In this document: positions 764 to 39,664 of the stretch, in pieces | Layout of the letters: each line of letters opens with the position of its first letter | How positions within the stretch are numbered: the stretch's first letter is position 1 | Assembly: GCA_947174215.1 (NCBI GenBank) | Contig: CAMWIB010000001.1 | Coordinates: 1-40,307 of the forward strand | DNA: 40,307 nucleotides | Direction of reading: 5' to 3' | From: an uncultured Clostridia bacterium | Lineage (GTDB): Bacteria; Bacillota; Clostridia; Christensenellales; CAG-917 | The notes under the pieces: generated by a model | The model's input: only the letters and a program-made list of their open reading frames with translations | What the model was told of the DNA's origin: nothing | Database searches by the model: none | Made by a program: the position numbers and the translations under genes

Positions 764-1516
764 TCAACTTTCAGCATCATTCTCAATACTATCCGTAGGT
801 GCAGTCGATTGGTCGTTTTCGGGTGCCTTGTTGCCATTTTGCAGATACTCTTCAACGGCTTTTCGCTTAATCTCTTCTATGCGCTCTTCCTCGGTTTGCG
901 CCTTCTCGACGGCGGGAGTGCGTATCGTGGTTATGAGCTTCCATATAAGACAAACGAGCATAATGACAAGCGGCAATGCGATTATAAACGCAAAGCCCGC
1001 GCCGTTTTTGAATACGCCGAGTATCCAGCTTATAAACGCGGTCTTTTTCACCATAACCGCATTTATGGTGCTAAGCCTTACGGGGTCGTCCACTTTCGCG
1101 CCCGCCTTGTCGCCCTTCGTGAGAACCACGAAGTCGTTTATGGTTTCATCAAAATGCACGCCTTTCACTATGCGGTGGGTAACTTCTCGGCCTTTCATAG
1201 TCCCGCTTTCGGCGGTGTACGTTATAACCACACCTTCGACAAATAGTTCCGTATCGTTCTCGTTCACGGTCTTGCTGAGAATAACGTCGCCCACGTTTAT
1301 GTTTGGCGTCATAGAATCGGTTACAATATAGTAAAAGCGATGATTGAACAGCGACGGCGCTTTGCCCTGTCCGACTTGAACCATTATAGCCACAAAAGCA
1401 ATGAGAACTGCGACAAAAACGACGGATAACACAATGGTTATCGCGCCGCCTATTATCTTTTTCCAATTCTTAGTAGAATCGTTATTCTTTTTTGCCTTTA
1501 CGCTTTTTCCTATCAT
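764..1516 (-). CDS. sipW: Signal peptidase I, SipW/ER-type (S26B-like), paralog 1, with a second TM helix and acidic cytoplasmic tail
   Basis: 250 aa. N-terminal TM helix (IIGGAITIVLSVVFVAVLIAFVAIMV); Ser box VTDSMTP; His box VTHRIV; TKGD...KVDDP box. A second TM helix (FAFIIALPLVIMLVCLIW) is followed by EEIKRKAVEEYL and an acidic tail. Its 5' end overlaps the upstream gene by 35 nt. Confidence 0.85.
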   Translation of the reverse strand: MIGKSVKAKKNNDSTKNWKKIIGGAITIVLSVVFVAVLIAFVAIMVQVGQGKAPSLFNHRFYYIVTDSMTPNINVGDVILSKTVNENDTELFVEGVVITYTAESGTMKGREVTHRIVKGVHFDETINDFVVLTKGDKAGAKVDDPVRLSTINAVMVKKTAFISWILGVFKNGAGFAFIIALPLVIMLVCLIWKLITTIRTPAVEKAQTEEERIEEIKRKAVEEYLQNGNKAPENDQSTAPTDSIENDAES

Positions 1517-3581
1517 TTTGCTTTGCCAACTTTTTGCGCTCTTTTTGCAGTTGCTTTATCTCGCGCATTTTATCTGCAATAACCTTTTCGATATCCTCGC
1601 TCTCGCCATAGTTGAACGCAATCTCGGAGAGTATTTGCAAGTTTTTCAATCTGTCGCTTTCAAGTATAAGCTTTACGCTATCCTCTATGACGCGCAAAAC
1701 CTGCGCTTCCTTGCGTTCCTTATCGACAATCTTATGAATCTCGGCTTTTTCCTTCTCGTTGATTTTCGCCCAGTTATCGCGTATACCGAGGTTTATAGCG
1801 GTACGTCTTTCGTTTTCCCAGAATCTGACGTTCTCCTCTCGCAAGCGTTCGAGGGTTTCAAGCTTATTCTTTTCCGTCTGTTGTGCGGACTCTCTCTTTG
1901 CCGCGGCTATATTGAGCAAGCTTTCTCGCTGAGCTTCGACAGTCTGCTTTTCTATCTCTATCCTCGCTTCTTCATCGACCTGACGGCGACGCTCGGCCTC
2001 CAATTCGCTCTCCTCTTTTTTATACGCTTCGATAGCCCTGTTGTACTCTGCAAGCGCCGCGTCGTATTCCGCCTGCGCGCTATCGTGCTTTGCCTTGGCT
2101 TCCGCAAGCTTAGACGACACTTCCCTGCGGTAGCGCTCTTCAAGCTCCTTATTCCTTTCCTTTATCTCGTCAAGCTCTTTCCTCTGCGCCGCAAGCCTCG
2201 CTTCCTCTTCTTCCTGCTTGCGTTTAAGCTCCGCTTCCTCCTCTTGGAGTCGCTTTGCCTCGGCGATATCCTCTTCCTCTTGACGTTTCAGTTCCAAACG
2301 CTTACGCGCCCTATCCGCACGCAAGCGGCGTTCCAAGTCCTTCTTCTCGCGTAAGGCAAGGAGCTTTGCCTGCTTCTCCTCTTGCAACTGCTTCTCAATA
2401 AGCTTCTGCCTCGTTACACTATCCTCTTTCAATTTATTGATGCGATACTGGCGTATAACGCGGTCAAGCGCGCCGTTAATCTTGTTAATTTGCGGAATAG
2501 TAAGAGTTTTCTCGGTTGGTATCTTCTTATAAATGGTTCGAATCTGCTCGATATCCATTTTGAGCTGAGGGAAATCGTCCGGCACGTAATCGTCGATATT
2601 CTTCGTGACGTACTCGTCGGCAAGCACCTTTTCCTTTTTCTGTGCGCTCTCCAAGCTCTCGCTCGTTTCATGAGTGGAAGCGATAGACTGCATCAGTATG
2701 GTGTTGAGATACACGATTGCGCGGAACTTATCCGCCATAGTCGGATTCATTTCCACCGTTTCCGTGCTTGTTTCCACCTTATATTCCATCTTCTCGCTTG
2801 TTTCGATATACTGCCACAGAACGAGCGCTTTCTTAAAGTTCGGGTCTTTCAGAATTACGTTCGTACGCTGAATCGGCGGTCTGACAAGCGCGCAGGAGCG
2901 CATTTCTCTTGCGAACGGACTGCCCAAGAAGTCGCTGATAATGGACTTTATACGGTTGATTCTGTCAAGGTCGGATACGCCGCCGCCCGAGCGTTTGACA
3001 ACCGCGTCAAACGGGAAATTCGCATTGCTGTTCATTTCGTAGCGAACCTTATTCTTGTTTACGGCGAATTCGCTCTCGACCTTTACGCCAAGCTCGCCGC
3101 TCTGCATAAGCGCGCCCTTGATTGCGTTGCTTCTTATCTCGATAAAGTCCTTGATTTTCAACAAAAGTGTGTATATAAAGCGATTTTCGTAAATCTCAAA
3201 GCTCTCTTCTTTTGACGTATTGAGAATCTTGGACGGGATAACCATTCCGTCCTTCGTAACCGACGATATCAAATTGGTATGCTGACTAAGGTGCTTGACG
3301 GACTCGACGGAAATACTGCGAGCCAAGGATATATCCACTATATCCTCTTCGATAACGATGAATTTACGCGGGTTACGCACTATGGTATCGAGCGCGACGA
3401 TACAGTCCTCCAAGGTGTCAATCCACTCGGTGGAATAGTTCTTCTTCGTATAAACCTGCGAAATCTTATAGTCGTTCTTTCCGCTGTCGATACTCTCGAC
3501 GTATTTGGGATATAGCTCACCCTGCTTCAATAAGGTGACTATCTGATAGACTATCTCTTCGTAAATCTTAGTACTCGCCAT
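1482..3581 (-). CDS. DUF2357/McrC-N-terminal-like protein fused to a long charged coiled coil; no nuclease domain seen
   Basis: 699 aa; RBS AGGGTGA upstream of the ATG.
- N-terminal ~330 aa carry the McrC/DUF2357-like box EESFEIYENRFIYTLLLKI (compare E. coli McrC NEDTLANRIIKSTL).
- A downstream segment reads PPIQRTNVILKDPNFKKALVLWQYI.
- Residues ~385-690 (nt ~1500-2430) are E/K/R/A/L-rich heptad-like sequence.
- The protein ends in the polybasic KKRKGKKE.
- I could not find a PD-(D/E)xK motif. Confidence 0.6.
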   Translation of the reverse strand: MASTKIYEEIVYQIVTLLKQGELYPKYVESIDSGKNDYKISQVYTKKNYSTEWIDTLEDCIVALDTIVRNPRKFIVIEEDIVDISLARSISVESVKHLSQHTNLISSVTKDGMVIPSKILNTSKEESFEIYENRFIYTLLLKIKDFIEIRSNAIKGALMQSGELGVKVESEFAVNKNKVRYEMNSNANFPFDAVVKRSGGGVSDLDRINRIKSIISDFLGSPFAREMRSCALVRPPIQRTNVILKDPNFKKALVLWQYIETSEKMEYKVETSTETVEMNPTMADKFRAIVYLNTILMQSIASTHETSESLESAQKKEKVLADEYVTKNIDDYVPDDFPQLKMDIEQIRTIYKKIPTEKTLTIPQINKINGALDRVIRQYRINKLKEDSVTRQKLIEKQLQEEKQAKLLALREKKDLERRLRADRARKRLELKRQEEEDIAEAKRLQEEEAELKRKQEEEEARLAAQRKELDEIKERNKELEERYRREVSSKLAEAKAKHDSAQAEYDAALAEYNRAIEAYKKEESELEAERRRQVDEEARIEIEKQTVEAQRESLLNIAAAKRESAQQTEKNKLETLERLREENVRFWENERRTAINLGIRDNWAKINEKEKAEIHKIVDKERKEAQVLRVIEDSVKLILESDRLKNLQILSEIAFNYGESEDIEKVIADKMREIKQLQKERKKLAKQNDRKKRKGKKE

Positions 3582-3594
3582 TTTTCACCCTATT

Positions 3595-5160
3595 TTAGAA
3601 CAGCTTCTTCAATCTGTTGAGGTACTCTTTGCACTCCGTCATATTTTCCTCGCCGAAATGGTCGTTTAAGTACTGGATATAGTCGTCAACCTCATCTCTG
3701 ATGTATGCGAGGTTCAAGGATTCGAACTTACGCAGAATCTTGTTGCAGAGGACGTAATCCAAGCCGTCTATCTCCGTACCGCCGCAAGCGACGTACACGG
3801 GTACGAACTCTTTGAGCTGCTTGACGATACGGTTACCAAACGCAAGACGGAAATGCTCAATGACGTAATCGTCCATTTCCTCGAACTTCTTCATATTCTC
3901 TTCGCTGACCTTATGCTCTTCCTGCGCCTTCTTAAACAGACTTTCAAGATAGGTGTAGTCGATAGGCAAGCCTTCGGTTAGCGGAGCGTCAAACGGCGCG
4001 GCTTTGGAGTTTATGTTTATCGGCATACCACGGTCGTAAACCTTATCGGATATTGCAAACGTGGAGTCGTCGTTGTTTGCCGTACCTACGTACCACATAT
4101 TCTGCGGAAGCGCAAAACGTCCCTTTACGACGTGCTTCGGGTCGCTCGGCCAGCCGCTCGGAACGAGGTCTACAACCCACTGGTCGCGGGACGGCATTTC
4201 CAAAATAGACAGCATTTCCGCGAAGTAGTACTCGACACGCGCGATGTTCATTTCGTCGAGAACGGTTATATAGACGTTCTTATTATACGTAGCGTCGTAC
4301 ATCGCCTTCAAAACCTCAGTTTCGTTGAAACGCTTGGTAAATTCGTTGAAGTATCCGAAAAGCTCCGTTCTGTCACGCCACGACGGCTGAACGGATGCAA
4401 TCGTCGTATCATTTTTAAGGAAGTGTCCTAAGCACTCGGGAAGAGAAGTTTTACCTGTACCCGATATACCTTGCAGGATTATAAGGCGCGTAGTCGCAAG
4501 CGAGGCAAAGAACAGACGGATAATCTTTGGTTCGTAGTAAAGCTTACGCCACGGACGGTCGGGATTGTTTGCGGCGTAATTTCTGAATCTGTCGCAAATC
4601 TGCTCCAACGTATAGTCGTAGCACTCGAATTTCTGCTCTTCGAAGTCGGGCGCAAGATATTTGTTGTCAACCTCCGTAAGCTTGTAGAAACGGCTCTCGC
4701 CCTCTTTCTTCTCGCTTGACGTGTCCTCTCCCTCTTCGCCTTCTATGATGTCATAGCCTTGATACGCCACTTTGAGTCCTAAGATTCTATCCTTTTCCCT
4801 CGTGGTTTTGACAAGCTCTTTTTTGAGCGTATTTATCTCGTCAACGAGGTCCTGATTGAGAACCTTATCACCGAATATCTTTTTGAATAAGCGTTTTGTC
4901 CAGAAAATGGCCTGCCACAAAAGTACGCCGAACACGGCGATTACGAGAATAAAGCAGAAGATTGCGCCAACCAACTCGCCCGTGGACAAAGAATCCTTAT
5001 AGTTGTTAAAGACTGCAACGTACTCGGGAATATTGAACATCTGATACAACGCGCCGAGTATACCGCCTGAATTTCCTATTGTCGGTGACGAGAAGAATAT
5101 ACCAAGTATACCCCCAAAGAAAATCTTGATAAAATCAAGAAAAAAGTTGCCGAACGTCAT
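3595..5160 (-). CDS. Membrane-anchored McrB-family AAA+ (AAA_5) NTPase, probably a GTPase
   Basis: 521 aa; RBS AGGGGGAG.
- Two N-terminal hydrophobic helices (aa ~5-27 and ~62-87), then a short coiled coil and an acidic linker.
- Walker A LQGISGTGKT (nt 4447-4470).
- Walker B plus the McrB signature VLDEMNIARVEYYFAEMLSILE (nt ~4200-4263).
- VGTANNDDSTFAISDKVYDRG, with NNDD matching the N-x-x-D GTP-specificity box of McrB. Confidence 0.75.
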   Translation of the reverse strand: MTFGNFFLDFIKIFFGGILGIFFSSPTIGNSGGILGALYQMFNIPEYVAVFNNYKDSLSTGELVGAIFCFILVIAVFGVLLWQAIFWTKRLFKKIFGDKVLNQDLVDEINTLKKELVKTTREKDRILGLKVAYQGYDIIEGEEGEDTSSEKKEGESRFYKLTEVDNKYLAPDFEEQKFECYDYTLEQICDRFRNYAANNPDRPWRKLYYEPKIIRLFFASLATTRLIILQGISGTGKTSLPECLGHFLKNDTTIASVQPSWRDRTELFGYFNEFTKRFNETEVLKAMYDATYNKNVYITVLDEMNIARVEYYFAEMLSILEMPSRDQWVVDLVPSGWPSDPKHVVKGRFALPQNMWYVGTANNDDSTFAISDKVYDRGMPININSKAAPFDAPLTEGLPIDYTYLESLFKKAQEEHKVSEENMKKFEEMDDYVIEHFRLAFGNRIVKQLKEFVPVYVACGGTEIDGLDYVLCNKILRKFESLNLAYIRDEVDDYIQYLNDHFGEENMTECKEYLNRLKKLF

Positions 5161-5176: not shown

Positions 5177-5962
5177 TTATGCCAGATAGTCGCCGACGAA
5201 TTGCAGCGAACTGAGCATAGCTGTCTTTTCTGCTTTACCGTTATCAATATCCACACCGCTGTACCAAGCGACGAGCCTCATTTTTTTGGTCGCACCCTCT
5301 GCGATAGTAAATGTTATTTCCTCACTCTTCGATATCATCTCAACCGCGCTCTGCTCATATATCGGCGTACCGAGCGCGATATCTCCGTAATATAGCTTTT
5401 CACCGCCGCCCATAATGCCTACGAGTACGTCGTCTACAAACAACGCCACGCAAAGCGCGTCCGCGTTATCTCCCTGAATATCGTACTTGACTATCACTCT
5501 TTGCGCAAAATCGGCATTTTTGTTGGTCAAATAGAATACTTCATCACCGTCTATTGACTTACAGTCCGTCGGAACCTCGGAACGAACCACTCCCGCATAG
5601 AAGTAAAAATCGCCTTCCGAGTCGTATGCCTGCGCCGCGGAATGGAAGTTATTCTCGCTCGTTTTATCCGAGATAATCGCAATAAAAGACTCGTAGCTCT
5701 GCCCTATCTGCGGCTTGTTCTTTGGAATCATCGGGCGCATATCTACATTGTTTGCAAAGCTAATCTCAAAGCCGTCCTTCGCGTCCGCCGCCCACGAGAT
5801 AGCAAGGTCGCCACCCGCCTCGTTGTTTGCAGAAGCCTTAAAGGAAATGACGGATACGTTGACCGCATTGCTCGCCGAGAACCATGCAAAAGTAGCCGTA
5901 GACAATGCTACCAGCAAGAGTAATACCATTATTATCGACGTCAAAACCAATCTTTTTTTCAT
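5177..5962 (-). CDS. TasA/camelysin-like secreted protein with SipW-type signal peptide (paralog A)
   Basis: 261 aa. Signal MKKRLVLTSIIMVLLLLVALSTATFAWFSASN. Family motifs shared with paralog B: VISFKAS, PMIP, FYLTN, VALFVDD, LVGIMGG, YGDI, ITFTI. C-terminal box LVAWYSGVDIDNG...LQF resembles the CalY/TasA C-terminus. RBS AGGGGA. Confidence 0.75.
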   Translation of the reverse strand: MKKRLVLTSIIMVLLLLVALSTATFAWFSASNAVNVSVISFKASANNEAGGDLAISWAADAKDGFEISFANNVDMRPMIPKNKPQIGQSYESFIAIISDKTSENNFHSAAQAYDSEGDFYFYAGVVRSEVPTDCKSIDGDEVFYLTNKNADFAQRVIVKYDIQGDNADALCVALFVDDVLVGIMGGGEKLYYGDIALGTPIYEQSAVEMISKSEEITFTIAEGATKKMRLVAWYSGVDIDNGKAEKTAMLSSLQFVGDYLA

Positions 5963-6043: not shown

Positions 6044-6811
6044 TTATACTGCCTCGCTAAACGTCAGCGAGAAGCTCGTACTCTTGTTTCCGTTTTCGTT
6101 CTTCATATCGACGCCGTCAAGCCACGCCGCAAGACGAATGCAAACCGAGCTATTTCTCGGTACGGTGAACGTGATAGAACCCGTAGCCTTGTATGCGTTT
6201 TCCATAACGGGCTTGTTGTCCACGACCTCGCCGACCTTTATATTGCCGTAGTGAATGCTTCCCGAGCCTGACATAATGCCAAGCAGTGCTGAATCTTCTT
6301 CCTTTTCTCCAACAAACATCGCTATATGCAGTTTTTCTTTAAGCTCGCCGACGACAGTGTACTCAACCTTAACGGTGATATCGTTTTCAGGCGCAATATT
6401 GTTGATATAAAAGTATTTCTGTCCGCCAACCGATAGTAGCAACGGAGTAGCCGCCGTACCGTCAAGCATTGCGACGAGCTGACCCGCGCCGTCGAGTCCT
6501 TCGAAGGTTTTTTGGAACTGCATAAACTGTGCAAGCTTCGTGCTTCCAATCACTCCGTCAACGGTTGGTATCATCGGGCTTATTTTCCCCGTAGTATCGA
6601 AGGTAAGTTCCGTTTCCTTTGCTGTCTTATCTTTTCCTATGGTAAGGAATCCGCCGACGTCCGACGAGGACGAGCGGAAACTGATTACACCTGCGCCTAC
6701 GACGTTGTTCGCACTATACCAAGCGTAGGTTGCCGTAGAAAGCACGACGAAAAGCAGGACTATCATAAGTCCGATAAAAGCTATTCTTTGAAGATGCTTC
6801 CGCTTTTCCAT
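6044..6811 (-). CDS. TasA/camelysin-like secreted protein with SipW-type signal peptide (paralog B)
   Basis: 255 aa. Signal ...LLFVVLSTATYAWYSANN. Colinear motifs with paralog A: VISFRSS, PMIP, FYINN, IAMFVGE, LLGIMSG, YGNI, ITFTV, LAAWLDGVDMKN. RBS AGGAG lies 6 nt upstream of the ATG. Confidence 0.75.
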   Translation of the reverse strand: MEKRKHLQRIAFIGLMIVLLFVVLSTATYAWYSANNVVGAGVISFRSSSSDVGGFLTIGKDKTAKETELTFDTTGKISPMIPTVDGVIGSTKLAQFMQFQKTFEGLDGAGQLVAMLDGTAATPLLLSVGGQKYFYINNIAPENDITVKVEYTVVGELKEKLHIAMFVGEKEEDSALLGIMSGSGSIHYGNIKVGEVVDNKPVMENAYKATGSITFTVPRNSSVCIRLAAWLDGVDMKNENGNKSTSFSLTFSEAV

Positions 6812-6820
6812 TGCCTACTC

Positions 6821-7840
6821 CTAATTACACGCGAAGCTGAGCGACAGCTGTACCTCGCCGTTGACAATCTTGTCTACGCAATCGCTATCCCAGCCCTCGA
6901 ACCATATAATTATCGAATACTTTACCTTCTCACCGGCGGCTATTTTCAGCCCGTCGTTGTAGATAGCGTATTCGTCGCTATAAAAGAATTCCGTCATCCA
7001 AGGGTCGTTACCCTCTGCCTTTACGATGTGATACTCGCCGTTCTCGTCTTTTGCAAGCTTCCTTTCCGTATATCCTGACGAGATAGGCACGACTTCCTCT
7101 CTTTGCAGGTCGCCATCTTGCTCAACACGCACTTTATCCTCTCCATTTAGATAGTAGAACCCCTCGTTATCGGAAAAGATTCTTCTTCCCTCGGAATCAA
7201 GTTTTATATAATTTCCGTCCTCGTCAGTCTTTGGCGCGGCGTAAACGAATATCTCGTCATTGCGTATAAGCATAACGCGGAGTGCCTTTTGCGCGCCCAA
7301 CGTAGCTATATCAAAGCTGACGCGCTCACCGTACACCTTTTCCTCGGAGGTGATGTTTTGCATATAGAAGGTTCCCGCGATGAAATAATCGTCCACACTC
7401 GTGATACTTCCTTCGCCGCTGACAATCTCGATAAGTCTATCCTCGATTGGCGTAGAGTGAACGATATTCTTTCCGCTTGCGAAGGTAGTGTTCGTCATCT
7501 CGTTCGGACCGATAATCTCTATCATTTCGCTTCCCGGTACCATACTGTTGTGTGGAGATAACGTCAAAATTCTTCCGCCCGACGGCTCGATATAAATTTT
7601 GAAATTGTTTATTCTGACTGCGGAATAAAATCCGTAAATGCCGCCGACAAGCAGCAGTAAAATGAGCAATATAATACCGACAATAATAATTGCCTTTTTA
7701 TGTCTTGTAAGCGCACGCGCTTTTTTATTTTGGACGACGTAGGCGTAATCGCTGTGTTTGGGAGCGTTCTTTTGCTCGCTCTGTCCCTCAGCGTTTTCGA
7801 CGGTATCCGTCGTTACGTCATTTTTTGGTTTCTTCGCCAT
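6821..7840 (-). CDS. Divergent TasA-like family member with a long cytoplasmic N-terminal tail and one TM helix
   Basis: 339 aa. About 50 aa of polar or basic N-terminus, then the TM helix AIIIVGIILLILLLLVGGIYGFYSAV, which ends in a variant of the family motif (YGFYSA versus FAWFSA). Body motifs: FYMQN, LRVMLIRNDE. C-terminal box IIIWFEGWDSDCV...LSLSF. RBS GGAG. Confidence 0.6.
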   Translation of the reverse strand: MAKKPKNDVTTDTVENAEGQSEQKNAPKHSDYAYVVQNKKARALTRHKKAIIIVGIILLILLLLVGGIYGFYSAVRINNFKIYIEPSGGRILTLSPHNSMVPGSEMIEIIGPNEMTNTTFASGKNIVHSTPIEDRLIEIVSGEGSITSVDDYFIAGTFYMQNITSEEKVYGERVSFDIATLGAQKALRVMLIRNDEIFVYAAPKTDEDGNYIKLDSEGRRIFSDNEGFYYLNGEDKVRVEQDGDLQREEVVPISSGYTERKLAKDENGEYHIVKAEGNDPWMTEFFYSDEYAIYNDGLKIAAGEKVKYSIIIWFEGWDSDCVDKIVNGEVQLSLSFACN

Positions 7841-8091: not shown

Positions 8092-8865
8092 TTATTCGTT
8101 CTCTTCCCCGTTTTCCTCTTTGCTTTCCTCTTCCTTATTCTCGTTCTCGCTCTCGTCCTTATTCTCTTCTTCGGCCTTGTTCTCTGCGCCGTTTTGGCTT
8201 GCGAGATACTCCTCTATCGCCTTTCTCTTAATTTCCTCTTCGTCAATAGCGCCGCCACCGTTCGCCTTTACCTTTTCCATCTTCCACTGGAATATCATAC
8301 GAATGAACATTGCGATATTCCACAGGAACAGCAAGCCAAGCGGCAATACGATTATGAGCAGGAAATGCGTAGGCTCTTGCAACCAGCTTATCGACTTACC
8401 AACACCCTTCAAGTGCGACTTGTATACCGCAAGTACGTTGTAGGGGTTGACCGTTTCGTTGCTACCCTCCGGGTTTGCGTCACCGTGAGTGATATACGTA
8501 AGCGCATTTCCGTCGCTATCTCTTACAACCTCGATAATTCTGTGGGTAATAAGCGCGTCGTAGCCGTTTATACTTCCCTTAAAGGTGATTATCTGTCCCT
8601 CTTGCAGTTGCAGGACGTTCTTTGGATTGCCCGCAATAACCAAATCGCCTTCCTTGAAGCTGTCCTTCTGGTCGCCGTCCATTGAGCCTGTCAAAACGGG
8701 CAATAGCTTTACTCCGCCCTTTGCCACGTTTGCGGATACGGGATTCGGATTGGCGATGATGATTGCCGACGCTATAATCGCAATCAAAACGACCACAACC
8801 TCGACGCTCGTCACGACGATATCTATTATCTTCTTTTGCTTTGGTGTAAGTGTAAGTTTCTTCAT
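8092..8865 (-). CDS. sipW: Signal peptidase I, SipW/ER-type (S26B-like), paralog 2, with a second TM helix and acidic tail
   Basis: The ORF track starts at a TTG at 8892, but the ATG at 8865 is preceded by GAAGGAG at 5-nt spacing, so I use 8865. TM helix, Ser box VLTGSMDG, His box ITHRII, THGDANPEGSNE. A second TM helix (FLLIIVLPLGLLFLWNIAMFI) is followed by EEIKRKAIEEYL and an E/N/K-rich tail. Confidence 0.85.
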   Translation of the reverse strand: MKKLTLTPKQKKIIDIVVTSVEVVVVLIAIIASAIIIANPNPVSANVAKGGVKLLPVLTGSMDGDQKDSFKEGDLVIAGNPKNVLQLQEGQIITFKGSINGYDALITHRIIEVVRDSDGNALTYITHGDANPEGSNETVNPYNVLAVYKSHLKGVGKSISWLQEPTHFLLIIVLPLGLLFLWNIAMFIRMIFQWKMEKVKANGGGAIDEEEIKRKAIEEYLASQNGAENKAEEENKDESENENKEEESKEENGEENE

Positions 8866-9140
8866 GTTGCTCCTTCTGTCACAATTTTTCAACTGTGCGC
8901 TATATAAGGCGGCTTTCGCCGATAATTTTCCTCTTTATCCCGACAATACCCGTCCGCAGACGGCACTGTCTACACTGTATCGCGTGCGAGTACACGCTCG
9001 CGCCTTACGCACGCATACGCGCGTAAAAAAATAAATGAATAACAAGCATTCTCTGGGACCCCGCAAACGTCCTCTAAGGGGTACCCGCGAAACCTCCGCG
9101 TTTCGTGGGGTAAATTTGTAGGGTTGATAAAATGCTTATT

Positions 9141-9225: not shown

Positions 9226-10179
9226 TTAGTCGTTGTTTGCAGCAGCTACACCGCTAAACATCACCGTAAACAATGCACCGGTTCCTGCATAAGCGTTGGT
9301 GTGGCTGTCGCCTTCAAACCAAGCAACGAGTTGAACTTGTACGCCACCCATTGGTGCAACACTTGAAACAACGTTTTCAGCAGTGCCGCTTGCAGTTGCC
9401 GTATAGTTGCTGTGTGCCGCAGGCGTATCTCCTGCCGCAGGACCACCTGCGCCAATCGTGATATTTGCATATTGGACAGCCGCTTGCTCTGACGAAGCCC
9501 AAGTTCCAACATACTTTCCGTCAATAAACATAGCAACTCTCAGGAACGGATTTGCCTTCAATTCATAGTAAGTAGTGCCAGCTTCCGCAGTTGCACCAGT
9601 TTGAGTCGCTTCATAAGCGTCACCGTTCTTCGTATAAAGTCCTTCGACGGATTCGCCCGCATTAACAGCCTTCTCCGCATAGTAGTTAGGATTGATAGTA
9701 ACGGCAGCCGAAATTCCGCTGGCGACACCACCGACGTTGGTTACGTAGAAGCTATCTTGCTCCACTGCCGATGAGCCTGAACCTTTAACATCAGTAATAG
9801 CCGCAACTTGTGTTGTCGTAGGCGCAGAAGCATAATTGCCTGCGTTATCGACAGTATATGTAATAAATGCGGCTTTGAAATCTGCATACGTAGTTGTGCC
9901 AACAACAGGTGCAGTTGCCGAATTGTACATAGCAGGATTGATTGCCTGATTCATGGTGATGTCTACCGAAGATTGGTTAGCAGTACTGCTGGTAGCCTTT
10001 GCAGTGTCGATAACCAAAGATGCACTGGTAGAATTTGCCGACGTAACAAGCGTTTCGGTAACCGTAGCGTTGCTTTGCGCCGTATACCATGCAAAGGTTG
10101 CAGTGGACAGTGCAACGACAAGGAGTAACACCATTACGATGGTGGTTACTACCATAGATTTTTTCATTGTCTTTTTCAT
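9226..10179 (-). CDS. TasA/camelysin-like secreted protein, candidate major fibre subunit
   Basis: The ORF track starts at 10191, but the ATG at 10179 is preceded by GGAGAAAGTT (an RBS), giving MKKTMKKSMVVTTIVMVLLLVVALSTATFAWYTAQSN. The body is rich in A/T/S/G/V. Family motifs RVAMFIDGKY and VQLVAWFEGDSHTN...FTVMF. It is the only family gene with its own long upstream regulatory region and a downstream strong hairpin. Confidence 0.75.
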   Translation of the reverse strand: MKKTMKKSMVVTTIVMVLLLVVALSTATFAWYTAQSNATVTETLVTSANSTSASLVIDTAKATSSTANQSSVDITMNQAINPAMYNSATAPVVGTTTYADFKAAFITYTVDNAGNYASAPTTTQVAAITDVKGSGSSAVEQDSFYVTNVGGVASGISAAVTINPNYYAEKAVNAGESVEGLYTKNGDAYEATQTGATAEAGTTYYELKANPFLRVAMFIDGKYVGTWASSEQAAVQYANITIGAGGPAAGDTPAAHSNYTATASGTAENVVSSVAPMGGVQVQLVAWFEGDSHTNAYAGTGALFTVMFSGVAAANND

Positions 10180-10257
10180 AACTTTCTCCATTTTTTATTT
10201 CTTTTTTATTTAACGGTCCGCGGGAATGATTTGGTTGTTTATCGCTGATTGCGCAAA

Positions 10258-10579: not shown

Positions 10580-12202
10580 CTATTTTGCAAGCGGAAGCTT
10601 TTTTGCTCCCTTGATTGCGTTTTGTATTATTCTTACAGGGCTGCCAACTATATCGCCCTCGATATTTTCCATTCCGTGAGAAAGGAAATATTTTGCTTCT
10701 TTGACCGAATTCACGTAGATTGCAGAGGTCCTTATACCCTGAACCTTGGCGTATCCCAACACCATATCGAGATGTGCGGTCTTTTTTACGTCCTCTTCCT
10801 TATAATAACGGGCGTCGAAGCGCAGATAGTCGATATTATATTCAGTCAGAACCTTCAAGCCTGCGTTCTCGGTGTTGTCTATCATTATCTTTACACCGTT
10901 TTCGGCAAGCTGTCTTATTCCAAACAAACCCCTATCTCCCAAAGCTTCAAGCAAGGCGCAGTCGAAAGCCAAAACCAGATTGCCGTTTTCCGTCTTTGCG
11001 CTCTTGATAAGCCTCTTCAATATATCGTCCTTTATAAGCAAACGCGCCGATGCCTGCGTAACGAATACCGTATTCGGGTTTTCGTCGCAGTCGCTTGCCG
11101 TCTGCTTTACGCTAAGGAGATTGAGCGTTTCTATTCTCTCGCTACCCTCTGCAACCGCAAAAAACTGCTGAGGAAGCATCTTTCCCAAGAATTTGTCGTT
11201 GAGAACCTGTTGCACCGTAACGTACGCAATTTCGTTCTCATTCGTGCGCGCCGCGTTATAGAAGTACACGATAGGCTCCGTCAGCGCAACCGCACCCTTT
11301 ATCGTCGTAGCCTGCTGTCTGAGAGCTTCGAGCTTTTCCCTGCCTTCCTTTTCTTCGAGGTCGAAGTCGTCACCCATAAGCTCGGCGACTATATCCTTAT
11401 ATAATTCGCCTTCTATCGGCTCGTATTCCTTGCCGTCGAACTCGCCCTCTTCGGGCTGTATCTCCTCAAAGCCATCTAAGACGGCTTCGGGATTGAATGG
11501 ATATCTCTCCGCATACGCGACGGGAACGTAGTAGTCCTTCTTCGTCAGTTCGTACTTCTCAGCAAGGGTTTTTAGGATATCTAACGCACTCTTTATAGAT
11601 TTTCCGTCTTTTTCACGCTTGACGTCAGTCGTACCGTTAAGAGCGGAAATTCTAAGCATTTTATCCTCAACGGAAAGAGCAAGAATACACTCTCCGTTTA
11701 TGTAAAACCTCTCCTGTTTGCTTATAAAACGTCTTTTTACGTCCGCGTATGCGAGCAACTCGTTTTTAATCTTGCCGTACGCAAGCTTGACCGAGTTGGG
11801 CGCAAGGCGCAACCTGTTTTCAAATACGTTTTTGAGTATCTCTCTGCCATACGCGTCGTACGCACCGCTTACGCCAATCTCGTCCGCGTCCTCTTCGGTG
11901 TCGTTGGCATTATACTCTACTTCTTCCTCTGCCTCTTCAACAGCTTCTGCAACTTCGGCAACCTCGGCAACATCTGCAACTTCATTGCTTGACTCGGCTT
12001 CGATTCTTTTGCTTGCAAATTCGTCGGCGTTTTGCTCTGTTTCGACAGATTCGGCGGATTTTACATCCATTTCGATATCATTAAGTACCGTTTCAACAGT
12101 ATTGACATTCGCTTCCTCTGTTTCAACAGATTGCGTGAATGCTTCCTCCGTTTTGGCAGAATCCGCGTTTATTTCCGCTTTTTCGACAATATCCGCTTGC
12201 AT
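10580..12202 (-). CDS. Cytoplasmic protein with an acidic N-terminus, an unknown middle domain and a C-terminal degenerate EAL-like domain
   Basis: 540 aa; RBS AAGGGG 6 nt upstream of the ATG; no signal peptide. The C-terminal ~240 aa (nt ~10583-11305) are colinear with EAL-domain blocks, but the catalytic residues are replaced:
- FFAVAEGSERI corresponds to FIxxAEExGLI.
- VKIMIDNTENAG corresponds to the ialDDFGtG block.
- DYLRFDARYY corresponds to the dxlKiD block.
- IRTSAIYVNSV corresponds to the vvAEGVEt block.
- IEGDIVGSP corresponds to the QGyxfsxP block. Confidence 0.55.
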   Translation of the reverse strand: MQADIVEKAEINADSAKTEEAFTQSVETEEANVNTVETVLNDIEMDVKSAESVETEQNADEFASKRIEAESSNEVADVAEVAEVAEAVEEAEEEVEYNANDTEEDADEIGVSGAYDAYGREILKNVFENRLRLAPNSVKLAYGKIKNELLAYADVKRRFISKQERFYINGECILALSVEDKMLRISALNGTTDVKREKDGKSIKSALDILKTLAEKYELTKKDYYVPVAYAERYPFNPEAVLDGFEEIQPEEGEFDGKEYEPIEGELYKDIVAELMGDDFDLEEKEGREKLEALRQQATTIKGAVALTEPIVYFYNAARTNENEIAYVTVQQVLNDKFLGKMLPQQFFAVAEGSERIETLNLLSVKQTASDCDENPNTVFVTQASARLLIKDDILKRLIKSAKTENGNLVLAFDCALLEALGDRGLFGIRQLAENGVKIMIDNTENAGLKVLTEYNIDYLRFDARYYKEEDVKKTAHLDMVLGYAKVQGIRTSAIYVNSVKEAKYFLSHGMENIEGDIVGSPVRIIQNAIKGAKKLPLAK

Positions 12203-12220: not shown

Positions 12221-12250
12221 GCGTTTACTGCGTATATATTGCATTTTACG
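12221..12250 (-). promoter_or_regulatory. Repeated 30-nt leader/promoter-like module, copy C
   Basis: GCGTTTACTGCGTATATATTGCATTTTACG sits exactly 18 nt from the ATG of the 540-aa gene and overlaps the stop of the upstream 227-aa gene. Confidence 0.45.
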
Positions 12251-12929
12251 CTTGTTCTGCACCTTCCTCGTCGGTTTCGGGAACGACGACTACCTGTATG
12301 GTGACCTGTATCTTTTCCGCATTCCTTATGCTTGGATAGCAGAGGTCGTCAACCTGTCTGAGATACATCGTGGTGTTAAGCGTTATATCCGCACTGTCGT
12401 CCACGGTGAATTTGGTTTTTGACGGCGTTTTCCAATCGTCTTTGGTTATGGAGAACGTATTCATCTCTCCGTTGCCGCCGATATACTTCCATTCAAACTC
12501 TATTTCCACGCTTAAATCATATTCCAGACTGAGCTTTTCCTTGCTTCCGTCGGCGAAAACCATATATACGTCGCAAGTTATCGCCATTTCCGCCTTATTC
12601 GATTGCTTATCGCTTTCGTTCTTGTAGCGGAGCATACTTTCCTTGCTCACGACGGTCGCGGCTTCCACCACGTTTTCACCTACTTCAAGCACGTTAAAGT
12701 TCAATACGTTATCAGTTATCGCGCCTTTTTTGGCTACTGCGGGCTTAATTGCGTCAAGCGTATATTCGTTTTCATCGAAGTACACGACGAGGTATCCGTC
12801 GGCGCTCATTTTGAACTGATTATCCGCGCCCGCGCTACTCGTATACCACGCAAAAGCGACTCCGATTGCGGCAACGCACAGCGTAATTGCAAGGCATACG
12901 GTGATTATAATGAGAGATTTCTTTTTCAC
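12246..12929 (-). CDS. Divergent secreted protein with SipW-type signal peptide
   Basis: 227 aa. GTG start preceded by GGAGG at 9-nt spacing. Signal MKKKSLIIITVCLAITLCVAAIGVAFAWYTSSAG. It overlaps the upstream gene's stop by 4 nt (GTGA). Confidence 0.65.
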   Translation of the reverse strand: MKKKSLIIITVCLAITLCVAAIGVAFAWYTSSAGADNQFKMSADGYLVVYFDENEYTLDAIKPAVAKKGAITDNVLNFNVLEVGENVVEAATVVSKESMLRYKNESDKQSNKAEMAITCDVYMVFADGSKEKLSLEYDLSVEIEFEWKYIGGNGEMNTFSITKDDWKTPSKTKFTVDDSADITLNTTMYLRQVDDLCYPSIRNAEKIQVTIQVVVVPETDEEGAEQA

Positions 12930-13702
12930 TCGTCCGCACCTCCGCCTTCAACCGTGCCGCCCTCTACGATATGCGCGGCGATTCCGACCTCGACCGTAGC
13001 GGTGAACACCGCCTTCATATTCTCATAGCCGCAATACGCAAAAGCCTCGACTTCATCATATTCCTCACTAAGCCAATGTGCGTAACTTACTTCGTCAAGA
13101 AATATCAGCTTGAATATCAGCTCCACCGTGACAGCCTCGGGAACTTCGTAGTAAACGAGTTCTCCGCCCGCCTCGCGGCAAAGAAAGCCGTCCTTGTCGG
13201 GACCGTACGACTCACCGTCTATCTCTATACGCCAAGTAAAACAGTCCAAAATCTCGGGCGTACCGTCATTTCCCACCGAGCTTACGTGTTCACCCGTAGA
13301 GCGGGCAATCTGCATTGCAGAGATTCTTGCAGTCATCGCAGAATCACTTCCCAAAGGGCTGAACGTAACGGTAAGTTTCTTGGCGACCACGTAGGGAGCG
13401 TCAACTCCGTCGAATTCGTCGCCATCGTAACCCTGCCCCGTTTCACCTTTATACAGTTTAGGCTCGAAAGGCTCCTCGTTTTCGATAAAGGTATTCGCGC
13501 CCGCCGCGGCGGTTATAGTCGTAGCCGTCGTATCCACTCTCGTCTGAGAAACGAACCAAGCATAAGTAGTCACGGTCAGAGCAAGCACAATCGCGACGAC
13601 GAGTATTTGGATTGAGATTACGATAACCTTCTTTTTCACGCCAATTTGTCCATTATTTTTAGAGTAACACAAGAAAAATCGAATTACAAGGGGAATTTTC
13701 AT
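12926..13702 (-). CDS. Divergent secreted protein with SipW-type signal peptide
   Basis: 258 aa from the first ATG. It contains VKKKVIVISIQILVVAIVLALTVTTYAWFVSQT. By analogy with the paralogs, the GTG at 13639 may be the real start. Neither start has a clear RBS. Confidence 0.6.
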   Translation of the reverse strand: MKIPLVIRFFLCYSKNNGQIGVKKKVIVISIQILVVAIVLALTVTTYAWFVSQTRVDTTATTITAAAGANTFIENEEPFEPKLYKGETGQGYDGDEFDGVDAPYVVAKKLTVTFSPLGSDSAMTARISAMQIARSTGEHVSSVGNDGTPEILDCFTWRIEIDGESYGPDKDGFLCREAGGELVYYEVPEAVTVELIFKLIFLDEVSYAHWLSEEYDEVEAFAYCGYENMKAVFTATVEVGIAAHIVEGGTVEGGGADE

Positions 13703-13784
13703 AAATATTGAACAATATGTTTAAGATTATCGAACAGCTGTCTGATAATATCAAACAAAATGTATAAAAAAATCGCCTTGGGTA

Positions 13785-13813
13785 TTGACATCTGCGCACG
13801 CTTATATTATTTT
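13785..13813 (+). promoter_or_regulatory. Candidate promoter of the giant-gene operon
   Basis: TTGACA at 13785-13790, a 17-nt spacer, then TATTTT at 13808-13813 inside an AT-rich tract. The -10 element is imperfect. Confidence 0.35.
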
Positions 13814-13832
13814 ATTATATAGTGTATAAAAA

Positions 13833-13858
13833 GATAGCGCGCTATCGTCTACACTGTA
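13833..13858. promoter_or_regulatory. Candidate operator or 5'-UTR element: a perfect 14-bp palindrome plus TACAcTGTA
   Basis: GATAGCGCGCTATC (13833-13846) is a perfect palindrome. It is followed directly by GTCTACACTGTA (13847-13858), whose core TACAcTGTA is an inverted repeat. Both lie between the putative -10 element and the RBS. Confidence 0.4.
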
Positions 13859-13865
13859 AGGGGAA

Positions 13866-16800
13866 ATGGGGAAAATGAATAAATCGCTGCTTAGGACGAG
13901 CCTGAAAATTAAGGCAAACCTAAAAAGAATTTTTATACTTTCAGCAATAGCCATACTTCTCGTTGCCATTGCGGCACTTGGAGCAACTTCAATTTCAGAT
14001 TCAGACGAAATCGCCTTTGGTACTCAACTCAAAGAGGGCTTTATGCACGATGCGGAAACCCCTACCGCACTCAAACTTAAAGATAGCGATTTGGTATATA
14101 ACACATCATCCCAAACCTTCACCCTTACAATTACAAACAGCATCGGCACGTCAAGTAGCGGCATAAGCACGAACAACGTTTCCATGACGTGGACGTCCAA
14201 AGACCGCGACGACGATGGTATGTACGGTAAATACACAGGCAATATGGAGAAGCCCGACGGCTACGGGTTTTCAGTAGAACGCCTTAGCCCGAACAGCAAC
14301 ACCTACAACTACGGCTCTTATAACGCTTTCGGCGCAGTCCTCAATCTTGAATTGCCACAGTTTATGCAGGATTTGATAAACAGCGGCACGGTGAAAGCCT
14401 CTGCTACGGCAAAGCTGAGCATGCGCCAAACTTGGAATGCTCTGGGTAGCGGTGAATATCATATGGGTATTGCGGGCGGCTCGTCGCTTATCAAGCCAAG
14501 CCAACAAAACGTATCCAACTGGGATAACCGCCCAAGCGCCGCTTCATATCTTAGCGGTTTTACCGTAACGGACAAGCAATGGTGTAACGACGGCGACTGG
14601 GGCGACACTATTACGGACGTAAGCGTTGGGGACACTACGATAGGCGGAAAATATCTTGGCATAGGCTTGTCGGGTATGTCCGACCACTGGCCGGGCTACT
14701 CCACTCCTGACGCGCGCCTTACAAGCATTGTCGTTACATTCAAATATTCCGCAACTATAAAGATTTCTGCGGACAGCCACGCCGCATTCGATTACCGTTG
14801 GTACGGAAGCGCAACGCCCACATCCTTTGGCGCTCTTACGGAAAGCAAAACCATAACGGCGGGAAACAGCGTTTCAAAATCTACGACAAACCCCTACGCT
14901 TTTATGTCTATAACGCCAAAAACAGACCTCGCAGGTTATCGCTTTAAGGAAGTGGTTGCAAACACCACAAACGCATTGGGAGCTACTGCCACAACAGATT
15001 TTGAAAAGGCACCGACTTGTACTATTGCCTCTATTACGACAACGGGCGGATATACTCCCGAGGGAAGCGCGACAGGCAAGCTGAGGAACAACAAAAACGG
15101 AAACTCCGTCAACTCGACAGCAAGAAAATACAACGTGGTTTATCGTTCAAACGGCGGCAGTGGTAGTGATACTACAAAAACCTATGACTACGATACCTCA
15201 TACAGTACACCCAACCCCGCCGATTTCGGTTTCTCAAAAAAGGACTCCGTTCCCGCAGGTTGGACTTATACTTCGGACAATAAACCCGATATCAGCAACA
15301 CCAACCGAGGAAAGCAATATTCATCGGGCAACACTTTCTCAAATCTTTTTCCCAACCTCAACAACAATACGACGACCCTCTATTTTGATACCGTCTGGGT
15401 TGAAGCCGCTCCAACCAACAAAGAAACGAGTTTCGTCAAGATGGAGATATCCGCTTATTCTGACAAATATTCCGACGTCGAAATTACAATAACCGCAACC
15501 AAAACAGGACATACTCTCAAACAGGTTTACGCCACATACACAAGCGGAGATATCAACGGAACCAAAATTGCGCTGGAATATGTTCAAAATTCAACCAGTG
15601 GCAACAAGTCAAGATGGATGCTTTACGGCATCAGCGGCAACTGCGATATTACTACGGAATGGGTTGCAAACCAATACACCATAACCTACGATTGGAATAG
15701 CGGTAGCGGAACAAACGGTCCGACTACATACTATTACGGCACGACCGTTACTTTGCCTTTTGGCGGCACACGTGACGGCTATAATCTTGACGGATGGACT
15801 CTAACAGCAGCATCTGGCGGCTATGCGACCACAGGTACACAATACACCCTTCCCAAGGGTTCTTACGGAAATATTACTGCAAAAGCAGTATGGAAAAGCG
15901 CAAGCGTAACTCCAACCCAAAATGCAGACTCCACAGCCGACAGCCCCGACACAACAGGCGTTAGCAACACCGGCTTTAATACTGCGATTAAAGGCTTAGG
16001 CAAAACATACCATTCAGGTCAGTCAACATTCGACGCAACAGAGGAAACTGCGGTCACTCAAAAAGTTGACATACCAACTTCGGTGCAATATGCACTTCGC
16101 ACTGGCGCAACAGTAAAAGCAACGATTAAAGGCAAATTGGAAGTCGGCACGCTTAACGACAACTACGTTATTGTTGGTAGCGACCCGAATGCTTCAAAAG
16201 CATATGGCAGAATCGGAATCAATGGCACATATGCATCATATTTAGCCACGTCATATACAAAAGTTTACGATTGGGATAGCTCTGCTGAATGCACAAGCGC
16301 TACACAAAACGCCACATCTGCCGCATTAAAGAACACAGATACACAAGTAACCGTCTACGTGCAGTTGAAACGCGAAAAAGTGCATAAGCGTGGCGATGCG
16401 TATTTTTATGCAATCCTTACAAGTTTCACCATCACATATTCCGTTAGCGGCGGAACACCGTTGACAATAACGTATAACGGCAACGGCGGAACGACCTCCT
16501 CAAACACATCCACGGAAAAAAGCACTTACTTGCAATCGACAGTCGGCGCAAGCGCAACCGTTTCATTCCCGACATCTATGTTTGCACGTAATGGATACGA
16601 ATTCCTTGGTTGGAGTACTACTCAAAGCGCAACGTCACCCGCCAAAAAAGCAGGTGAAACCGCATCAATATCCTCCGCCACAACTTATTACGCAATTTGG
16701 AAGAAGAAAAACTACCCTGTCAACACCTACGACGTGTGGACTGACGGCACAAACTACGGCGCGACCATAAGAAAACAATGGTACATTTCACACGATGACA

Positions 16801-38845: not shown

Positions 38846-39431
38846 ATCTACACTTATATTCCTCATCGTTGCCATCACAATTGTGAGTGTGCTTGCCGTG
38901 AGCGGTATATCCTATGCAATCTGGACGAAAGTATCAGAGGACAATCAGGAGCTTAATTTGCCTATTGCCGATTATAATCCATCTGAAAAATACATTATCT
39001 TCCGCGGACTTGACGAGGATAATAATTTCTCCGACGTAACGGGCAAAGAAACTGTCGCGTATGCCGCAGTAGGCTACGATAGCGCGAGCCTTGTTGCAGA
39101 GGTTATCATTCCTTCCGAATATAAGCCGTCCGATGATGCGGAAGCAAAGCCCGTAATAAAGATTTGCAACAGCAATATTGGCACAGATTCTCAACATATG
39201 TTTATCGGCAATCCTATAATTACGTCAATCGTGATTCCCGCAAGCGTGAAAGAAATTGCCGTTTCCGCGTGTGCAGAGATGTCATTGCTTGAAAGTATCG
39301 AGATTGAGGGAGAGGATGAAATAACTATCGGCGACTACGCGTTTGCAAACTGCCCTCTTCTTCAAACCTTCACCTGTAATAGAAACGTCGTTGGCGCAAG
39401 AGAGCTGTATCTTATGGGAAGCAATCTCTAA
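38820..39431 (+). CDS. Small secreted BspA-type leucine-rich-repeat protein with a SipW-type signal motif
   Basis: 203 aa. GTG start with AAGGAG 7 nt upstream; overlaps the end of the upstream gene by 26 nt. Signal MKKISKLNKSTLIFLIVAITIVSVLAVSGISYAIWTKVSEDN. LRR_5-like segment SIVIPASVKEIAVSACAEMSLLESIEIEGEDEITIGDYAFANCPLLQTF. Confidence 0.7.
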   Translation: MKKISKLNKSTLIFLIVAITIVSVLAVSGISYAIWTKVSEDNQELNLPIADYNPSEKYIIFRGLDEDNNFSDVTGKETVAYAAVGYDSASLVAEVIIPSEYKPSDDAEAKPVIKICNSNIGTDSQHMFIGNPIITSIVIPASVKEIAVSACAEMSLLESIEIEGEDEITIGDYAFANCPLLQTFTCNRNVVGARELYLMGSNL

Positions 39432-39602: not shown

Positions 39603-39664
39603 ATTTAATGTAATATATACAGTAAATAAACGGAAATTATTCCGAATAAATTGTGAGGCAAATT

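Follow-up and report, generated by a model that had tools for sequence, protein, structure and literature searches.

A membrane-anchored McrBC-related GTPase and its DUF2357 partner in a conserved SipW gene cluster of uncultured Clostridia

The gene cluster and its proteins

The stretch of DNA analysed here, called the window, comprises 40,307 nucleotides (nt) of contig CAMWIB010000001.1 from an uncultured Clostridia bacterium (assembly GCA_947174215.1). It carries a minus-strand gene cluster in which the gene for a McrB-type AAA+ GTPase is followed by that for a McrC-like partner protein (Table 1). In the order of transcription, the cluster starts with two small proteins of 258 and 227 amino acids (aa), a 540-aa EAL-domain protein, a 321-aa SipW-substrate-like protein and the signal peptidase SipW 1 (266 aa). 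These are followed by a 339-aa membrane protein, two further substrate-like proteins (255 and 261 aa), the GTPase, the partner and a second signal peptidase, SipW 2 (250 aa). The 261-aa gene (5177..5962) is separated from the GTPase gene by 16 nt, with a strong AAGGGGGAG ribosome-binding site. The gap between GTPase and partner is 13 nt, and the partner gene overlaps that of SipW 2 by 35 nt. A first-pass annotation, made from the sequence without database searches, had reported gaps of 14-17 nt or overlaps. It had also seen no internal promoter or terminator. Promoter- and terminator-like matches within the GTPase/partner pair are indeed weak and the regional promoter-like count is within shuffle expectation, but the terminator-like count lies about 2 standard deviations above it. 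An Rfam scan for a cyclic di-GMP (c-di-GMP) riboswitch or another leader found only a tRNA-Asn.

Table 1 Features of the window, with positions in nt. Open reading frames are abbreviated ORF, hidden Markov models HMM, AlphaFold2 AF2 and transmembrane TM.
Feature	Position	Strand	Basis or remark
McrB-type AAA+ GTPase, N-x-D clade, CoCoPALM GTPase (521 aa)	3595..5160	minus	ORF call, profile matches, motifs
GTPase, predicted N-terminal membrane hairpin (aa 1-95)	4876..5160	minus	hydropathy and AF2 helices
GTPase, linker (aa 96-200)	4561..4875	minus	AF2 secondary structure, pLDDT, composition
GTPase, AAA+ core and C-terminal helical lid (aa 201-521)	3598..4560	minus	invariant alignment columns, alignments
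McrC-like partner, whole ORF (699 aa)	1482-3581	minus	ORF call
Partner, N-terminal DUF2357 region (aa 1-380)	2442..3581	minus	Pfam DUF2357, BLASTP, family HMM
Partner, highly charged, predicted helical tail (aa 381-699, about 320 aa)	1485..2441	minus	composition, AF2
SipW-type signal peptidase, paralog 2 (250 aa)	764..1516	minus	NF046067 SipW E 7.6e-17, TIGR02228 48.1 bits
SipW 2 tail motif AVEEYL	842-859	minus	cytoplasmic tail
SipW-type signal peptidase, paralog 1 (266 aa)	8092..8892	minus	NF046067 E 1.8e-17, TIGR02228 54.7 bits
SipW 1 tail motif AIEEYL	8203-8220	minus	cytoplasmic tail
Putative SipW substrate or fibre subunit (261 aa, ...STATFAWFSAS)	5177..5962	minus	TIGR04088 (sub-threshold)
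Putative SipW substrate, paralog (255 aa, ...STATYAWYSAN)	6044..6811	minus	alignment member
Putative SipW substrate, paralog (321 aa, ...STATFAWYTAQ)	9226..10191	minus	ORF call, N-terminal motif
Conserved single-pass membrane protein (339 aa)	6821..7840	minus	TM segment, synteny
Cytoplasmic degenerate EAL-domain protein, conserved first cluster gene (540 aa)	10580..12202	minus	Pfam EAL E 4.4e-14
Two small secreted or membrane proteins (227 aa, 12246-12929; 258 aa, 12926-13702)	12246..13702	minus	
Best sigma-70-like promoter match (TTGATA-17-GATAAT), upstream of the first minus-strand gene	13726..13754	minus	consensus match only
tRNA-Asn (GTT)	174-249	plus	Rfam scan
7081-aa protein with Flg_new, YDG and MBG domains	13866-35111	plus	divergent from cluster
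1245-aa protein	35108-38845	plus	divergent from cluster
Small BspA-type LRR_5 protein	38820-39431	plus	far end of the window
DUF308 membrane protein	39653-40195	plus	far end of the window

The McrB-type boxes which had been noticed in the 521-aa protein (GISGTGKT at aa 231-238, VLDEMNIARVEYYF at 300-313, GTANNDDST at 359-367 and DKVYDRG at 372-378) are all present, and they are invariant or nearly so in an alignment with 28 homologs of 61-87% identity. Walker A (GISGTGKT) and Walker B (VLDEMN, with D302-E303) are strictly invariant in these homologs; the sensor-1 motif N-x-D-D covers aa 362-365. That all catalytic residues are invariant suggests that hydrolysis matters. Pfam AAA_5 matches the GTPase with 22.5 bits (cut-off 22) and NCBIfam McrB with an E value of 1.3e-5, while its significant sequence matches in the PDB are exclusively E. 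coli McrB chains. When the family profile was compared to E. coli McrB with hhalign, a probability of 97% was obtained (E 9e-11), which places the protein in the McrB clade as proposed. A Foldseek search with the full GTPase model returned generic AAA+ matches, with T. gammatolerans McrB at ranks 2, 5, 7 and 8. The TM-scores are low owing to the N-terminal helices and the result is thus supportive rather than decisive.

One of the boxes had been read as N-x-x-D. The sequence N-N-D-D is better understood as N-x-D with a further D behind it, the form seen in the clade related to CoCoNuT systems (see below). In the sensor-1 alignment, ANNDDS from the window corresponds to MNTADR in E. coli McrB and to ANHDET in CoCoNuT-like proteins; over the longer block, GTANNDDST compares to GTANHDETT or GTANQDEST in CoCoNuT-like proteins and to GLMNTADRS in E. 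coli. Further sequence blocks are common to the window GTPase and the CoCoNuT-like proteins alone and are not found in E. coli McrB. An exhaustive library search detected N-x-D-[DE] in 140 of the 150 best library representatives. Judged by the motif and the clade-specific blocks, an assignment of the GTPase to the N-x-D branch is supported.

The two hydrophobic helices near the N-terminus were confirmed by hydropathy analysis (aa 5-25 and 56-89, with the basic sequence TKRLFKK after them). The AF2 model (predicted local distance difference test, pLDDT, 77) has helices at 2-19, 60-96 and 103-134 ahead of the AAA+ core. Within the linker, the long helix 103-134 is followed by an acidic low-confidence stretch (about 136-155) and a small helical region. 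By the positive-inside rule, the catalytic domain is predicted to be cytoplasmic. N-terminal membrane segments occur in 83 of the 150 best library representatives, in differing contexts.

For the partner, no Pfam match was obtained at full length. When only aa 1-420 were searched, DUF2357 (PF09823) was matched with 28.8 bits (gathering score 23.3) over aa 58-156. This span takes in the YENRFIYTLL box (131-140), so that the proposed McrC/DUF2357-type N-domain is borne out, and the same family is matched by 12 of 24 partner homologs. A long beta-hairpin is predicted at aa 163-188. Across the (Y)ENR box, BLASTP aligns the partner with a DUF2357 protein encoded in a CoCoNuT-like operon (E 5e-10), and the partner family HMM retrieves DUF2357 proteins that accompany other N-x-D McrB genes. 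In contrast, hhalign found no similarity between the partner profile and E. coli McrC, and the search of the profile against PDB sequences yielded coiled-coil noise only. Foldseek of the partner model against the PDB gave nothing better than E 0.05; with its low pLDDT of 64 the model is uninformative on a McrC-type finger and says nothing either way on the expected fold.

The region from aa 381 to 699 consists to 45% of E, K and R, has not a single proline, shows a weak heptad signal and ends in a basic C-terminus; in the low-confidence AF2 model, a continuous helix starts at aa 362. The first-pass annotation had described this region as a coiled coil that replaces the nuclease of McrC. Its extent and charge are as described, but a single alpha-helix is an alternative to the coiled coil, and composition and AF2 cannot separate the two. 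No nuclease family was found in the partner or in its 24 homologs at E values up to 1, and beyond aa 190 the model contains helices and one short strand before the single long helix. The partner is thus without a detectable nuclease, a very degenerate fold being conceivable since the model is of low confidence. The partner is computed to be soluble. Its length varies from 369 to 1245 aa between related loci, and some partners are almost helix-free.

The adjacency of a sipW paralog to the pair is corroborated by matches to NF046067 and TIGR02228. For both paralogs the NF046067 score is under the equivalog cut-off, and only paralog 1 passes the cut-off of TIGR02228 (51.85). SipW 2 has two TM segments. 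Both paralogs contain recognisable Ser (SM), His (THRI) and GD boxes, and both peptidases are apparently active. After the C-terminal membrane helix, both carry a cytoplasmic acidic helix motif, EEIKRKA(I/V)EEYL. In a loose form, it was found in 69 of the 119 SipW homologs from the related loci L001-L083, compared to 3.2 in shuffled tails and to 11 of 770 other ORFs, and it is sometimes repeated two or three times (e.g. in L083, L011 and L006). This conserved tail motif is a new observation, and it could serve as a docking site for the GTPase complex. A regulatory role that is independent of peptidase activity has been reported for the C-terminus of B. subtilis SipW. In some loci, a SipW gene is located between GTPase and partner (L026, 11665-13107; L032, 11855-13084; L040, 11710-13020), and this SipW has a disordered tail of 150-250 aa, which is acidic at first and then rich in Lys, Ala and Thr with AKKPAAK-like repeats.

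The genes adjoining the pair had been called TasA-like. What remains of this label is the N-terminal motif T-(F/Y)-A-W-(F/Y), which is shared by the three substrate-like proteins, and a sub-threshold match. TIGR04088 (cognate_SipW) is the top match of the 261-aa protein (E 0.004, 17.2 bits, cut-off 19) and is not listed for its paralogs. A profile built from the substrate-like proteins had no match in Pfam or the PDB, and all 63 substrate-like homologs detected in a large protein search are unnamed proteins. The 258-aa protein has a comparable N-terminus (...TVTTYAWFVSQ) and, like the 227-aa and 339-aa proteins, it is signal-anchor-like in this region. The 339-aa protein has a cytoplasmic extension of about 40-50 aa ahead of its membrane segment and ...GGIYGFYSA after it.

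In the EAL-domain protein as well as in 36 orthologs, other residues stand at the canonical catalytic positions of the motifs EAL, ExxE, DDFG and EGVE. As phmmer found no match for this protein in the PDB, its degeneracy was read from the motif positions alone. The N-terminal half (about 300 aa) is acidic and has no known domain. The EAL domain is probably non-catalytic and possibly binds c-di-GMP, the sequence being more likely that of a receptor than of a phosphodiesterase. EAL degeneracy across the orthologs is also a new observation.

Conservation of the cluster and relation to known systems

ORFs were called in 83 related loci and searched with HMMs built from the window proteins. Genes downstream were counted for the 52 loci with at least 4.5 kb of downstream sequence and genes upstream for the 44 loci with at least 6.5 kb of upstream sequence. 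The GTPase is followed by a partner homolog in all 52 loci and a SipW gene is found downstream of the GTPase in 41 of them. Upstream, SipW, the 339-aa family and the EAL protein are each present in 39 of 44 loci and a substrate-like protein in 41; at least one SipW gene occurs in 78 of 81 loci. The usual order is degenerate EAL protein, 339-aa membrane protein, SipW-substrate-like proteins, SipW, McrB, McrC, SipW. In L025-L032 and L040, loci of a Christensenellaceae group, SipW is encoded between McrB and McrC. Independent gene calls with Pfam marks gave the same order, with housekeeping or surface-protein genes as neighbours and without defence genes. A check of gene neighbourhoods had been suggested in the first-pass annotation, and its outcome is that the homologs are linked to SipW and substrate-like genes and not to defence islands. 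The GTPase/partner pair belongs to the core of the cluster, which is conserved, and is not an insertion.

The distribution is wide. In a word-indexed search, for which at least 8000 candidates were scored, the GTPase relatives among the matches listed are 59-97% identical to the window protein, and at least 568 species-representative genomes encode a relative. According to their labels, these genomes are mostly from Clostridia (Christensenellales/Christensenellaceae, Oscillospiraceae, Acutalibacteraceae), and McrB identity across Christensenellales, Oscillospiraceae and Acutalibacteraceae is 54-97%. Searches of plasmids and phages revealed no member of the window GTPase family; the best matches reach 35-40% identity in the GTPase domain only. 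The spread of the window clade is apparently vertical, unlike that of mobile defence genes.

In Acutalibacteraceae loci (L062, L065, L073 and L080, at about 13800-21000), an ORF of 2053-2399 aa with an ordinary Sec signal peptide directly follows the partner gene and takes the place of the second SipW.

The first-pass annotation had considered such a pair to be undescribed. This has to be corrected, as the class was named CoCoPALM by Bell et al. 2024, in a description of two sentences with the analysis deferred to a "forthcoming publication" (PMC11090510). CoCoPALM systems are described there as having an N-x-D McrB GTPase fused to an FtsB-like TM and coiled-coil domain, a coiled coil on McrC and an association with signal peptidases (PMC11090510). 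The window pair has the corresponding features: an N-x-D GTPase with TM segments and a helix, a DUF2357 partner with a long coiled-coil-like region, and adjoining signal-peptidase genes. No difference was found, and by its sequence features the locus fits the description point by point as a typical CoCoPALM member. Membership is by the published description and not by accession. The FtsB-like assignment of the N-domain had been made with HHpred (PMC11090510); hmmscan of 28 homologs found no FtsB/DivIC similarity in the N-domain and only weak PspB-type matches. We found no later literature on CoCoPALM, SipW-McrB or TasA-AAA+ beyond the eLife paper and its preprint.

The CoCoNuT systems hold the closest GTPase relatives outside the family, with 35-40% identity. 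They share the motifs N-x-D-[DE], LQG(I/M)SGTGK(T/S)SL, SWRDR and DKxYDRA with the window GTPase. Their partner is likewise a DUF2357 protein with the (Y)ENR box, and coiled coils are present. CoCoNuTs combine CnuB and CnuC with the helicase CnuH and the nuclease CnuE (PMC11090510). They differ from the window pair in having no membrane anchor, always a nuclease (HEPN, PD-(D/E)xK or another) and usually an UPF1-like helicase. In addition, they are found on plasmids and phages, whereas the window locus lies in a fibre operon. Neither a CoCoNuT tandem nuclease nor a CnuH helicase was found in the window operon with Pfam, NCBIfam and PADLOC (cf. L085 and L092). The closest plasmid and phage relatives of the GTPase sit in operons for a helicase, an unknown protein, a coiled-coil McrB and a DUF2357 protein, which is the CoCoNuT layout.

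One such operon, complete and CoCoNuT-like, is on a human-faecal "Bacteriophage sp." contig that was deposited as an unverified phage genome (L092, MT835511.1, 23-9247). Its genes are those of an SF1 helicase, a 535-aa protein, a coiled-coil McrB that carries N-Q-D-E and a DUF2357 protein whose C-terminal motifs are Cys-rich and zinc-ribbon-like. The operon is adjoined by an ORF for a LexA/CI-like repressor.

With the McrBC systems of E. coli and Thermococcus, the pair has in common the AAA+ GTPase fold and motifs and the two-gene operon, and by analogy the partner may plug a hexamer. It differs from them in having neither the DNA-binding N-domain nor the PD-(D/E)xK nuclease, in the membrane anchor of the GTPase, in the sensor motif (N-x-D-D rather than N-x-x-D) and in a partner that is not detectably similar to E. 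coli McrC. The pair is not a DNA restriction enzyme.

The surrounding genes resemble the tapA-sipW-tasA operon of B. subtilis and the sipW-bsaABC operon of C. perfringens, in which ER-type SipW genes adjoin those for several small secreted proteins with signal peptides that end in a T-x-A-x-F-type motif. In contrast to these operons, the subunits encoded in the window have no detectable TasA or Peptidase_M73 similarity, and the cluster additionally encodes the McrBC-like pair and a degenerate EAL protein, while its SipW peptidases are two paralogs that share a conserved motif in the cytoplasmic tail. None of these features is known from the model operons. A more distant and purely functional analogy may be drawn with PilB and GspE of type IV pili and type II secretion, where a cytoplasmic hexameric NTPase acts at the membrane on membrane-anchored subunits that are processed by a dedicated peptidase, and where some systems receive c-di-GMP input via degenerate EAL or other receptors. 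PilB and GspE belong to an unrelated ATPase family, and the window has neither a PilC-like platform nor a prepilin peptidase.

Possible function of the pair

We consider it reasonably likely that the pair is a McrBC-derived, nuclease-less and fixed component of a cluster for a SipW-dependent secreted, pilus-like fibre, and that it acts in the cytoplasm as an organiser, gate or motor driven by GTP. The ring of six GTPase subunits known from McrBC may form here too, held at the inner face of the membrane, and by the same analogy the DUF2357 domain would plug this ring and stimulate GTP hydrolysis. The complex would couple nucleotide hydrolysis to SipW cleavage, to polymerisation or to extrusion of the membrane-anchored subunits through the wall. 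It might contact the acidic (A/I/V)-x-E-E-Y-L helix in both SipW tails, and the degenerate EAL protein might supply a c-di-GMP input. There is precedent for an NTPase that aids the export of a SipW-processed fibre: in C. perfringens, secretion of BsaA oligomers is reduced in mutants of pilB1 and of other type IV pilus genes, and their efficient export relies on proteins of the type IV pilus, among them the PilB1 ATPase (preprint, PMC11580942). This also weakens the statement in the first-pass annotation that known TasA/BsaA systems need no NTPase.

Several points weigh against a role in fibre biogenesis. The profiles of the substrate-like proteins have no TasA or Peptidase_M73 similarity in Pfam or the PDB, and because the subunits lack this similarity the fibre itself is something that we infer. 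Contact of the pair with SipW or with the subunits is likewise inferred only, and the finger-in-pore geometry is assumed, as the model of the partner is poor and Foldseek is uninformative. To our knowledge, TasA-type fibres assemble extracellularly without an NTPase. For the CoCoNuTs, which are the closest relatives, a role in defence is predicted, and a candidate defence model of PADLOC matches the GTPase. Finally, there are related pairs outside the fibre context. L088 (2899-6741) and L091 (1797-5017) are stand-alone GTPase/DUF2357 pairs among housekeeping genes, with four to five N-terminal membrane helices on the GTPase and no SipW context. In L089 (1-8695), a membrane-anchored GTPase with an N-H-D-E motif, which shares 41% identity with the full length of the window protein, is encoded together with a short partner of 324 aa directly downstream of prophage or phage genes for tail, holin and endolysin, without SipW or substrate-like genes. 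As membrane-anchored pairs exist outside the fibre context, the module must have a function that does not need fibre genes.

In a rival reading, the pair would be a defence or superinfection-exclusion module, in which a membrane sensor and motor derived from McrBC or CoCoNuT acts via abortive infection or via a change of surface fibres or receptors; linkage to the fibre operon would then reflect the thing that is controlled or protected. The roots of the pair in Type IV restriction and in the CoCoNuT clade (CoCoNuT-like operons are L085, L086 and L092) are consistent with this, as are the stand-alone pairs with multiple TM segments and the position of the L089 relative after prophage lysis genes, which is a typical place for phage-carried defence genes. 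The PADLOC model PDC-M26A matches the GTPase with an E value of 1.6e-37. However, PDC-M26 is a candidate system only, the model is clade-wide as it also matches the CoCoNuT-like CnuB, and the GTPase is its sole match in the operon, with none for the partner or the other proteins. Neither a nuclease nor another effector was found in the pair or the operon, and the genes around it are not of the defence type. Genes for defence tend to have a patchy distribution and to evolve fast. The pair, in contrast, shows strict synteny and a vertical-looking spread over at least 568 species at 54-97% identity, and the family is absent from the plasmids and phages that were searched. Of the two readings offered by the first-pass annotation, the linkage to SipW and substrate-like genes thus favours a role in fibre or pilus biogenesis, while L089, the stand-alone pairs and PDC-M26A keep that of a membrane-acting defence module alive, which we nevertheless regard as rather unlikely.

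A similarly low probability is assigned to a device without motor function, for which GTP is a switch and not a power source: a scaffold that positions the fibre machinery, a ruler that sets spacing or length by its charged helix, or a relay that passes c-di-GMP or SipW-tail signals on to gene expression. The charged helix is long, rigid-looking and of weak heptad character, compatible with a single alpha-helix spacer. Conservation of the degenerate EAL protein at the operon head and of the motif on the cytoplasmic SipW tails would fit a signalling role, as would the regulatory role reported for the B. subtilis SipW C-terminus. On the other hand, a fixed-length ruler is disfavoured by the length range of the partners and by those with almost no helix, the invariance of all catalytic GTPase residues points to a need for hydrolysis, the FtsB/DivIC similarity was not reproduced with hmmscan, and no DNA-binding or signalling output domain was found. 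That a defence-type pair happens to have inserted into the fibre operon of this genome has only the ancestry of the pair in its favour and is extremely improbable given the same gene order in dozens of loci from different Clostridia families; chance adjacency was rejected on account of this conserved synteny.

We tentatively put forward a more specific version of the role in fibre biogenesis, which is speculative: the membrane-anchored McrBC-derived GTPase complex may serve a hitherto unrecognised kind of pilus machine of monoderm gut Clostridia as its dedicated power unit or gate. Docked on the cytoplasmic tails of both SipW peptidases and tuned by a degenerate-EAL c-di-GMP receptor, it would hydrolyse GTP in order to process donor-strand-type fibres and extrude them, and would thus be a restriction-enzyme motor exapted to assemble surface fibres. 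McrBC-type GTPases have been known only as nucleic-acid-directed defence motors. Here, such a GTPase is devoid of every nucleic-acid module, is anchored in the membrane and is conserved in a surface-fibre operon that many uncultured Clostridia of gut and rumen possess. Should it drive or gate the assembly of fibres, this would amount to a new kind of NTP-powered machinery for pili and to a clear case of a defence motor that was recruited to cell-surface biogenesis in abundant host-associated bacteria. For the CoCoPALM class, so far published as a name and a short description, the list of conserved parts provides testable handles, namely two SipWs with the tail motif, the degenerate EAL protein, the orphan subunits and the 339-aa membrane protein.

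Flanking regions

Between the tRNA-Asn gene and the end of the cluster (283-763, about 480 nt), there is no minus-strand ORF of at least 60 aa. The tRNA gene itself is preceded by a strong promoter-like site (122-150) and followed by a 12-bp hairpin terminator (256-282). On the other side, the window continues with the divergently transcribed gene for the 7081-aa protein. Proteins with Flg_new, LRR_5 or Big domains also occur as flanking proteins in L001, L003 and L087, and the link to giant surface proteins appears to recur.

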